Shown in pieces: positions 39,929 to 42,349 of a stretch of 64,000 nt of DNA. Under the pieces are notes generated by a model that was given only the letters and a program-made list of their open reading frames with translations, was not told the DNA's origin and made no database searches. The DNA comes from Octopus vulgaris (lineage: Eukaryota). The stretch spans positions 198,958,001 through 199,022,000 of the forward strand of contig OX597815.1 of assembly GCA_951406725.2 (NCBI GenBank), given 5' to 3'. The position numbers and the translations under genes are program-made. Each line of letters starts with the position of its first letter. Position 1 is the stretch's first letter.

Positions 39929-40080
39929 TATAGGCGGAAAAGTAAGAAAATAAGCGAAAATGCACATTGCAAATAAAAAAATAAAGGCTTTTTATGAAAA
40001 GTAATGATAGATATATACAATTAGATGAACTGAGGTAGGAATAAAAGTAATAAAAGTCATTATTGTGAATTGTTACAGAG

Positions 40081-40128
40081 ATTCAAAAGCATACCGGTTT
40101 CGTAAAATTACTAATCATTGCTTTGAAT
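40081..40128 (-). ncRNA. Type-I hammerhead motif in the Penelope 3' region, core AUGAUUA
   Basis: AUUCAAAGCA-AUGAUUA-GUAAUUUUAC-GAA-ACCGGU-A-UGCUUUUGAAU: stem I 6+4 bp with one bulge, short stem II, palindromic stem III, GUA triplet. Confidence 0.7.
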
Positions 40129-40290
40129 GCACACCGATTACTGAACGGTGTCAGATCTACTAGTCCCTGTGTAAAAAGTTTATGTGTAAAGGACGTAAGT
40201 TGTTCTGGATTTGGTGCAGTTAGGGTAAATGTAGATCTGTAATGTTAATGGTGTATATGATGAATGGGGTTAGTGGTATTAATTGAAAGG

Positions 40291-40719
40291 TTAGTAGTGT
40301 TCTGCATTATGATATGTGTTCATATTGAGTTGTGGAAGATATCTATCGATGAAAGTTGCCTCTTTATTCATTCTTTCTTGTAGTGAGGTGTTCTGTGAAC
40401 ATTGATAGAAGGGGAAAATTATGAAATTAGGATTAAGATTTCTAGCACACCTTTCTATGTGTTCACTGATCTGTATCTGCCTGTATTGCGGGTGGCGGGT
40501 TTTTTCTTTGTGGAGAGTGGTTCTTCGACGAAGTGATATTCCTGTTTGGCCAATATAATTATTACCACAACCTAAGCATATAATGGCATAGATTAGCCTT
40601 TCCGAGGTACAGGTGAAATTTGATTTAATCCTAAATATTTCACCTTGTTTAAAGTGGAACTCTGAACCCTCCAAAACGTGGGGGCATGTACCACTGTTAT
40701 GTCGACCACATTTTTTCAA
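40291..40719 (-). pseudogene. GIY-YIG endonuclease domain of the Penelope-like element
   Basis: LIYAIICLGCGNNYIGQTG...RRTTLH...EH...E.TFI...PQLN, preceded by a Cys-containing linker. Confidence 0.88.
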
Positions 40720-41658
40720 TTTTGGTTCTGTTGTTAATGGATATAGTCTAGCGCAGTTTAATATTTTTTCAATGATTTAGGTTGCATTTTGCTTTTGATA
40801 ATTTTGTGTGAGCCTAAAATATTGTACATTGTTTTATCTCCTGCGAGGATGGGTAGATTTTGGATGATAAGACTGAAGGCTTCGTTGTTTCTATGAGTAT
40901 GTGTGGAAATGTATGGGAGCATTTTTAAGTCTGGCTTACTATTTCGGTTGACTTCCTTTAATGTCCGTATATCTATTTCCTTAGCTCGTTTAATGACATC
41001 ATTTATTAATGATATTGGGTAATGTCTTTCGATTAGTATTTATCTGAGTTCAAGGAGTCTTCGTTCACGAATATATGGTACAGATTCTTTTCGCTGGATT
41101 ATAAGGTATATTGATTTTTATGTGTTTGGGGTGACAGGAGTTGAATAATATGTATTGTATAGAATCTGTGGGTACATAGAAGATGCCTGTTTCGGTGTGG
41201 TTATTGACTATTTAATTAGGATGTCAAGAAAAGAGAGTTGTTTACTGCTGTGTTCCATGGTGAATTGTATGTTGCTATTAATATTGTTAAGCATTATTTT
41301 GAAATCGAGGAGTTTGTCCATGCTGTCTTTCCAAAGTATGAAGCAATCGTCCAAATACCTCTTCCAGTTCTCCTTTAAATAGCAATGAAATGAGGTGCCA
41401 TATTTTGTAATGATGATTGATATATTTTAAGCGCTAGGTAACCCATTACACGGTTCGCAATCACTGGAGCAGTTCGGGTTCCCATTGCAATTCCACATTT
41501 TCGTAGTTATGATGTCTATATTGGACTTCGTATATTTGTACGCCAGCATTACCTTAATCGTATTTGCAGCACTCTCAGTAATAGTAAAAAAGATATACAT
41601 AGATACATACATTCAGGCAGGCAGACAGACATTTGCATGTATACAAACAGACATATAT

Positions 41659-42067
41659 CTCTCTTTTTTACTTGTTTCAGTCATTTGACTGCGGCCATAC
41701 TGGAGCACCACCTTTAGTAGAGCAGATCGACCTGGGGACTTATTCTTTGTAAGCCCAGTACTTATTCTATCGGTCTCTTTTGCCGAACCGCTAAGTGACG
41801 GGGACATAAACACACCAGCATCGGTTGTCAAGCAATGCTAGGGGGACAAACACAGACACACAAACATACACACACACATACATATATATATATATACATA
41901 TATACGACAGACTTCTTTCAGTTTCCGTCTACCAAATCCACTCACAAGACATTGGTCGGCCCGGGGCTATAGCAGAAGACATTTGCCCAAGATGCCACGC
42001 AGTGGGATTGAACCCGGAACCATGTGGTTGGTAAGCAAGCTACTTACCACACAGCCACTCCTGCGCC
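41659..42067 (-). mobile_element. SINE family A, full length
   Basis: Ends ...CACAGCCACTCCTGCGCC on the plus strand. Confidence 0.92.
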
Positions 42068-42349
42068 TATGTATATATATATGTGAAGTGTTGTTATTGT
42101 CGTGAGTGAAGTTTCTGAACATGACGTGTATTTGGAATTTGCGCACGGGTTACAACTGTCTTGATGAGTTGTATCGATGTGACGTGAATGGAGATCGAAC
42201 GAAGTATTATCCCTACTTGTGTTCGTTATTGCTCAAACCCTTTCTTTCTCTTTGTAACTCGATCAGTGGTTCAATTCTTTAGTTTCTATGGATAACTTCA
42301 AATGTATCACCTATAAATACGAGGAAGCGGGATTTATTTATTTCAAACA

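Follow-up and report, generated by a model that had tools for sequence, protein, structure and literature searches.

Numerous small variants of Penelope hammerheads, with a reduced stem III and cleaving as dimers, were reportedly described by Lunse, Weinberg and Breaker in 2017. Swaps of the pair between positions 3 and 8 are likewise said to have been measured by Przybilski in 2007 and by Nelson in 2008. Minimal hammerheads in Penelope pseudo-LTRs have already been published (Cervera and De la Pena 2014, PMC4209133). During catalysis G12 acts as the general base and the 2′-OH of residue 8 as the acid (PMC6155905), and a Watson-Crick pair with base 3 keeps base 8 in place (PMC3884650). Natural hammerheads with U3-A8 are known from Perreault et al. 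(2011, PMC3088659), who also describe 2-bp stems II and a U13a insertion in the GAAA strand, and from Schistosoma Cercyon elements (PMC4209133). For the PAc Penelope hammerhead the double change C3G/G8C partly rescues and cleavage requires the element's protein (Frangieh et al. 2024), and cleavage is dispensable for insertion of this element in vitro (PMC11167929). Pairwise mutagenesis of a type III hammerhead found rescue by the G-C swap only, the other double mutants of the box having low activity (Roberts et al. 2023, PMC9901934). That scan would score the natural U3-A8 pair low too, so context matters. As for possible host elements, the Neptune/Nematis clades are marked by a reverse transcriptase (RT) with a GIY-YIG endonuclease on its C-terminal side, a CX2-5CxxC linker, DKG, (TA)n targets and inverted or tandem copies (PMC8557442).

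The locus described here lies in a 64,000-nucleotide stretch of Octopus vulgaris DNA (the window). The original prediction, made from the letters alone, had placed a complete minimal type-I hammerhead fold about 160 nt past a GIY-YIG stop on the same strand. Such a fold was found, 162 nt from the stop. The features of the locus are as follows, with the evidence in brackets.

39936..41504, minus strand: whole 5′-truncated copy of the element, with a (TA)n microsatellite at its end (homology to other copies ends at 41504 and ~39936)
41211..41426, minus strand: open reverse transcriptase piece with YLDD, 72 aa (motif by eye; the surrounding ORF has stops and frameshifts)
40291..40776, minus strand: last open ORF piece, a decayed CX4CxxC linker and GIY-YIG endonuclease with internal CxxC (stop at 40291-40293)
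40081..40128, minus strand: minimal type-I hammerhead motif with an A3-U8 core, in the pseudo-LTR of a Penelope-like element (sequence, structure, shuffles, family copies)
40119..40128, minus strand: stem I 5′ arm (pairs with 40081-40091; compensatory changes among relatives)
40112..40118, minus strand: core box N3-A9, AUGAUUA, with A3 at 40118 and U8 at 40113 replacing C3 and G8 (census, tree)
40102..40111, minus strand: stem II, 3 bp, with closing G10.1-C11.1 and a 4-nt loop (sequence, folding)
40101-40099, minus strand: G12-A13-A14 (sequence)
40098-40093, minus strand: palindromic helix III half ACCGGU (intermolecular helix III of -8.3 kcal/mol)
40092, minus strand: A17 (predicted cut between 40092 and 40091, placed via hammerhead numbering)
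40081..40091, minus strand: stem I 3′ arm with a bulged U at 40085 (stem I = 6 + 4 = 10 bp)

The frame at 40776-40291 matches Pfam GIY-YIG (E 3.2e-5), and the 72-aa YLDD piece gave no match to Pfam RT. The window copy is truncated at its 5′ side inside the RT and is ~90% identical to its relatives. It is a dead, truncated insertion, and the maintained thing is the motif of the family rather than this copy; the maintenance proposed in the original prediction holds, as regards the motif, for the master lineages of the family and fails for the copy on which it was made. Longer family copies extend further upstream and carry GLKF, DKG, YLDD, an intact CX4CxxC linker and GIY-YIG. A single ORF running from RT to GIY-YIG, broken in the window copy, places the family among endonuclease-positive Penelope-like elements. 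In tandem copies the motif precedes the next unit's ATG by ~200 nt (the whole motif in 5), so that it lies in a pseudo-LTR. Inverted pairs occur often among family copies, as do two alternative 3′ ends. A linker of the CX2-5CxxC form precedes the endonuclease and the targets are (TA)n. In its linker, DKG, (TA)n and inverted and tandem copies the family is like the Neptune/Nematis clades (Craig et al. 2021, PMC8557442), and the element is probably of Neptune/Nematis type, an assignment by linker and motifs. Outside the Penelope-like element, a tRNA-like short interspersed repeat occurs at 41662-42072 and in ~10 other places of the window, the copies being 73-95% identical.

The motif has the type I order in both sequence and structure: stem I, core box, stem II, GAAA, helix III, NUH and stem I again. 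The canonical C3 and G8 are absent, with A3 and U8 in their place; the core was read correctly as AUGAUUA in the original prediction, both changes falling on the 3-8 pair with complementarity kept. A3-U8 still supplies the Watson-Crick 3-8 pair that is the structural requirement behind C3/G8. A descriptor asking for any Watson-Crick 3-8 pair, stem I of at least 6 bp, a 2-bp stem II, a palindromic helix III and NUH matched the window once, at 40081-40128, and gave 0 matches in 100 dinucleotide shuffles. Helix III forms only as an intermolecular palindrome. As a monomer the motif shows no unusual stability on folding (z -0.66), and its minimum-energy fold (-5.9 kcal/mol) is not exactly the hammerhead (-5.4 kcal/mol). 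The two-strand minimum-energy fold has the energy of the double hammerhead (-20.5 kcal/mol), with nearly identical pairs. No second hammerhead motif for a cis dimer was found in the 64-kb window, and among 104 Rfam matches with E up to 10 none was a hammerhead at the motif. The AUG of the core was considered as a start codon and rejected: its frame stops after 11 codons, and the ATG of the ORF is ~200 nt downstream. Immediately 5′ of stem I is a 6-bp hairpin (40131-40151, minus strand), whose arms are kept across subfamilies while the loop varies.

Two censuses recorded the 3-8 pair across the family. The first searched the genome (2.8 billion bases) for the motif with N at positions 3 and 8. 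Its 80 exact copies comprised 66 A-U, 8 G-C, 2 A-C, 2 G-U, 1 U-C, 1 A-G and 0 C-G. The second used a 33-base tail pattern outside the hammerhead, which avoids selecting on the motif, and gave 177 matches, of which 100 were listed and 99 recovered. Among the matches listed, 83 copies reach the core, 76 of them callable and 7 not; the callable copies were 59 A-U, 14 G-C and 3 single mismatches, with 0 C-G, so that a Watson-Crick pair (A-U or G-C) is present in 73/76. One explanation holds that the family has CUGANGA and the window copy two private mutations, or that the motif is there by chance. The copy is indeed old and broken, its divergence from its relatives is as given above, and its monomer fold is weak. 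However, C3-G8 was met in neither the 80 copies of the first census nor the 76 callable copies among the matches listed of the second, and the shuffles gave no match. This explanation has next to no probability and is refuted by the census. A3-U8 is the family state and not private decay, and the check suggested with the original prediction, whether the altered core is the family consensus, came out in its favour in 66/80 and, among the matches listed, 59/76 copies. Copies L071 and L072 (G-U) and L070 (A-C) have derived stem II loops and look like later decay rather than intermediates. Two further subfamilies were observed. In one (L186, L187, L191, L204, L216, L203, L218, L222) the 5′ arm of stem I and the core box are duplicated in tandem over 21 bases, so that a single 3′ half has a choice of two 5′ halves. 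In the other (L192, L151, L157, L213, L176, L224, L168, L141) helix III carries an insertion of 3 bases; the palindrome is kept in interrupted form, its central base being variable, and could fold into a 3-bp hairpin as a monomer.

The order of the two states was read from trees. The first held 54 copies with the core columns dropped. G3-C8 was basal and all 30 A3-U8 rows fell in a starred clade together with 3 G3-C8 rows, at a cost of 3 changes. The second held 48 hand-picked copies (50 picked, 2 dropped for insufficient span) with all motif columns dropped, and required one change between G3-C8 and A3-U8. Its 27 A3-U8 rows group together in a single clade on a branch of 0.0027 (92/90, not starred), within a ladder of G3-C8 rows. 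Median end branches shrink from 0.054 (G-C) through 0.043 (A-U) and 0.037 to 0.025 (youngest A-U clade), and on this, together with distant G3-C8 relatives, the root rests; it supports the direction of the switch. The data support G3-C8, itself non-canonical, as the immediate ancestor. The original prediction was right that both changes fall on the 3-8 pair; direct descent from C3-G8 is not what was found, the older relatives carrying G3-C8. The switch is one event in the lineage, and linkage between the two positions among copies reflects descent.

A single event of this kind invites the explanation that A3 and U8 are neutral G-to-A and C-to-T transitions that drifted into the master element of an AT-rich genome, the ribozyme being already irrelevant. 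Both changes are indeed transitions towards A/T, and decay on end branches (11 changes in core columns, 48 copies) strikes the core in dead copies. Taken alone, the persistence of A3 and U8 since the switch has no statistical significance (~0.2 changes per site of master lineage). Against drift, both changes sit on one branch of 0.0027 within 0.63 of inner tree length, for which simple arithmetic gives a rough chance of 0.004, and neither site is in a CpG. Structure-preserving changes also went on after the switch. Descendants with A3-U8 and a longer palindromic helix III gave 459 matches (control 5); 29/30 of those fetched are homologous to the window element, and 10 sampled ones form a 100/100 clade nested within A3-U8 in the second tree. 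As helix III grew it remained palindromic (ACCAUGGU, ACCAAUUGGU, ACCGCGGU, as well as forms in which one central base is free), and stem I of the descendants shows a compensatory A-U to G-C change at 2.1-1.1. Four of these descendants, found via the ORF start instead of the core (L234, L237, L238, L253), have A3-U8 too. A search for a further 3-8 swap in the long-helix-III descendants found none (87 matches, control 61; the 9 recognised members all keep U8), and non-A bases at position 3 in these descendants are single decays.

Among the 48 copies, the 10 core columns take 0 changes on inner branches and the 23 other columns take 27, a count that leans towards a conserved core because the parser allowed one mismatch per core piece, with 3 rows mis-parsed and some of the 27 being stem I indel shifts. 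At the rate of the tree ~6 inner core changes were expected. The invariant U4, G5, A6 and A9, A13 and A14, and A15.1-U16.1 show 0 inherited changes in the 48 copies, subject to the same leaning of the parser. Lastly, drift in one element would leave aside the other motif families of this genome, unrelated to it in sequence, that have A3-U8, G3-C8 or U3-A8 and a stem I of their own. Neutral drift is thus already largely refuted and we regard it as very improbable. A hammerhead fold maintained at the level of the family, with a real 3-8 pair, is very probable.

Genome-wide, the tail GAAACCGGTA was found with U3-A8 in 6757 cases, A3-U8 in 411, G3-C8 in 154 and C3-G8 in 30; the corresponding reversed-pattern controls were 40, 63, 39 and 13. 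Any 3-8 state gave 8121 matches (gap 6-24, control 1086) against 7352 for the paired states together (gap 7-25), a rough comparison as the gaps differ. The expectation that CUGANGA searches would miss the motif agrees with the absence of an Rfam hammerhead and with the 30 C3-G8 matches to the GAAACCGGTA tail. Canonical cores with other helices III do exist, 4 having been met by chance in the genome, so the scarcity of C3-G8 is limited to the GAAACCGGTA class of helix III. Among sixty loci fetched from the pair-state lists are several families unrelated to one another in sequence, and many have a stem I of their own. Related GIY-YIG genes lie beside L049 (U3-A8) and beside L107 and L109 (A3-U8). 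A tree of 13 GIY-YIG protein pieces had 1 starred branch of 10 and gave no order of the families, leaving independent origins of A3-U8 unsupported. It is quite possible, at somewhat less than even odds, that the hammerheads of this genome's Penelope-like elements work with all four 3-8 pairs, mostly the non-canonical ones, and that the present lineage passed in one step from G3-C8 to A3-U8 and then to a longer helix III with an extra GAAA-strand base, all still cleaving.

Several other repeats were observed in these searches. The U3-A8 families of L031-L050 are very abundant, and in the two largest the motif is preceded by a run of pyrimidines that ends in CAG and resembles a 3′ splice site placed where stem I starts. 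Two more repeated families (L096-L100 and L101-L105) have AUGANUA and the same helix III, with stem I weak or absent; a distant RT piece lies upstream of L096 and of L100. A repeated motif with a C3/U8 mismatch, followed by GAAACC and GGGT, occurs in seven near-identical listings (e.g. C2:47397853, C2:78390765, C11:57568964).

How such a motif would work can be outlined. The base at 8 would position its 2′-OH through a Watson-Crick pair with base 3, for which any of the four pairs could serve, and A3-U8 would retain the geometry. Two motifs would pair through the palindromic helix III. Cleavage would then trim tandem or read-through transcripts, probably slowly and aided by the element's protein, such assistance being suggested by the need of the PAc hammerhead for its protein (PMC11167929). 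It seems likely from these analyses that the family motif supports measurable, slow self-cleavage as a dimer, with the cut predicted after GUA at 40092.

The main competing reading is that the fold is retained with no useful catalysis, for a job such as RNA dimerisation, protein binding or shaping of the 5′ leader, cleavage being nil or too slow to matter. Genomic traces of cutting are mixed in this respect. The 5′ ends of the 99 copies recovered from the matches listed do not accumulate at the predicted cut: 2/99 start within 2 nt of it, against 11 in the 38 nt immediately 3′. Among 16 copies with a tail-to-ORF junction, 5 contain the uncut motif and so were made from uncut RNA, 10 start further 3′ (4 of them near-identical duplicates) and 1 starts at the cut. 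A closer look at the copies that begin at the predicted cut (L127, L128, L220) shows that L220 is 5′-complete, its (TA)n being joined directly to the base that follows the cut and the copy continuing through the tail as far as the ORF, which counts against a fold without catalysis. Starts at the cut mostly follow (TA)n, and TA is common to target and cleavage triplet, so microhomology could explain them. The upstream half of L128 was not found within 10 kb. As to expression, contigs of four runs cover the motif stretch, and such contigs show neither ends nor strand. Later insertions of other repeats lie at or next to the predicted cut at L082:3522-3844 and L093:3520-3950.

Among published results, the rescue by the G-C swap alone (PMC9901934) and the insertion of another Penelope element in vitro without cleavage (PMC11167929) would fit a non-catalytic fold. 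The GAAA strand may point in the same direction. G12 directly precedes A13 in the window copy and its subfamily. The youngest subfamilies (L262-L290, L237, L238), which have a 2-bp GC stem II, show a variable base (U, A, C, G) between the conserved G and the A run, or have G12 replaced. The variable base is either an insertion after G12, akin to U13a (PMC3088659), or a loss of the general base, and the alteration could mean lost catalysis. On the other side, position 17 avoids G in the master lineages, which is a rule of cleavage and not of shape. In 118 stem I-bearing motifs from the fetched loci, a set biased by the search patterns, it is A in 83, U in 21, C in 13 and G in 1; the long-helix-III descendants (29 of 30 fetched being homologous) have A, U or C and no G. 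The unpaired catalytic core is, moreover, invariant on inner branches. We consider a non-catalytic fold unlikely, and slow cleavage by the dimer the better reading.

Were all these states to cleave, A3-U8 would be functional in nature, probably through rescue by dimerisation or by the element's protein, and surveys based on CUGANGA would have overlooked thousands of ribozymes in each genome. The active site includes the 3-8 pair, which search patterns write as a fixed C-G. The scale of the loss by canonical patterns is given by ~7300 non-canonical against 30 canonical matches, for one helix III in this genome. Dated states on either side of the G-C to A-U switch provide matched constructs for asking which of the core pairs are functional in vivo, and whether cleavage is the reason why Penelope hammerheads persist.

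In the text of the papers covered, no natural A3-U8 or G3-C8 core turned up. The passages covered from PMC7229834, PMC10085705, PMC2920678, PMC6765202, PMC3884650 and bioRxiv 2026.07.22.740005 hold nothing on natural A3-U8. Such cores may already be in print, foremost among the small dimeric variants of Lunse and colleagues (2017). Taken together, the comparisons indicate that the motif is real, family-wide and selected, a variant within a known class of ribozymes whose core-pair switch is recorded with unusual clarity and whose activity is predicted. It is like the motifs of PMC4209133, in the parts covered, in its type I order, its place in a pseudo-LTR, a short palindromic helix III for which a dimer is predicted to be necessary, G10.1-C11.1, and occurrence mostly as single truncated copies. 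It differs from them in a long stem I (10 bp), a short stem II (2-3 bp) and the lack of an extra base between 9 and 10.1. The cores in the part of that paper's Fig. S3 alignment that was covered are CUGANGA, UUGANAA and one UUGAAGA, whereas this family has A3-U8 and its ancestor G3-C8. The engineered G3-C8 swaps (PMC11167929, PMC9901934) are laboratory mutants, whereas G3-C8 is natural in the older members of this family. A3-U8 is among the low-activity double mutants of the type III ribozyme scanned in PMC9901934; here it is natural and in a type I motif. With the natural U3-A8 hammerheads (PMC3088659, PMC4209133) the family shares a compensatory swap at the same tertiary pair. However, it has a purine at 3 and a pyrimidine at 8, and its switch can be placed on a tree, flanked by older and younger subfamilies.
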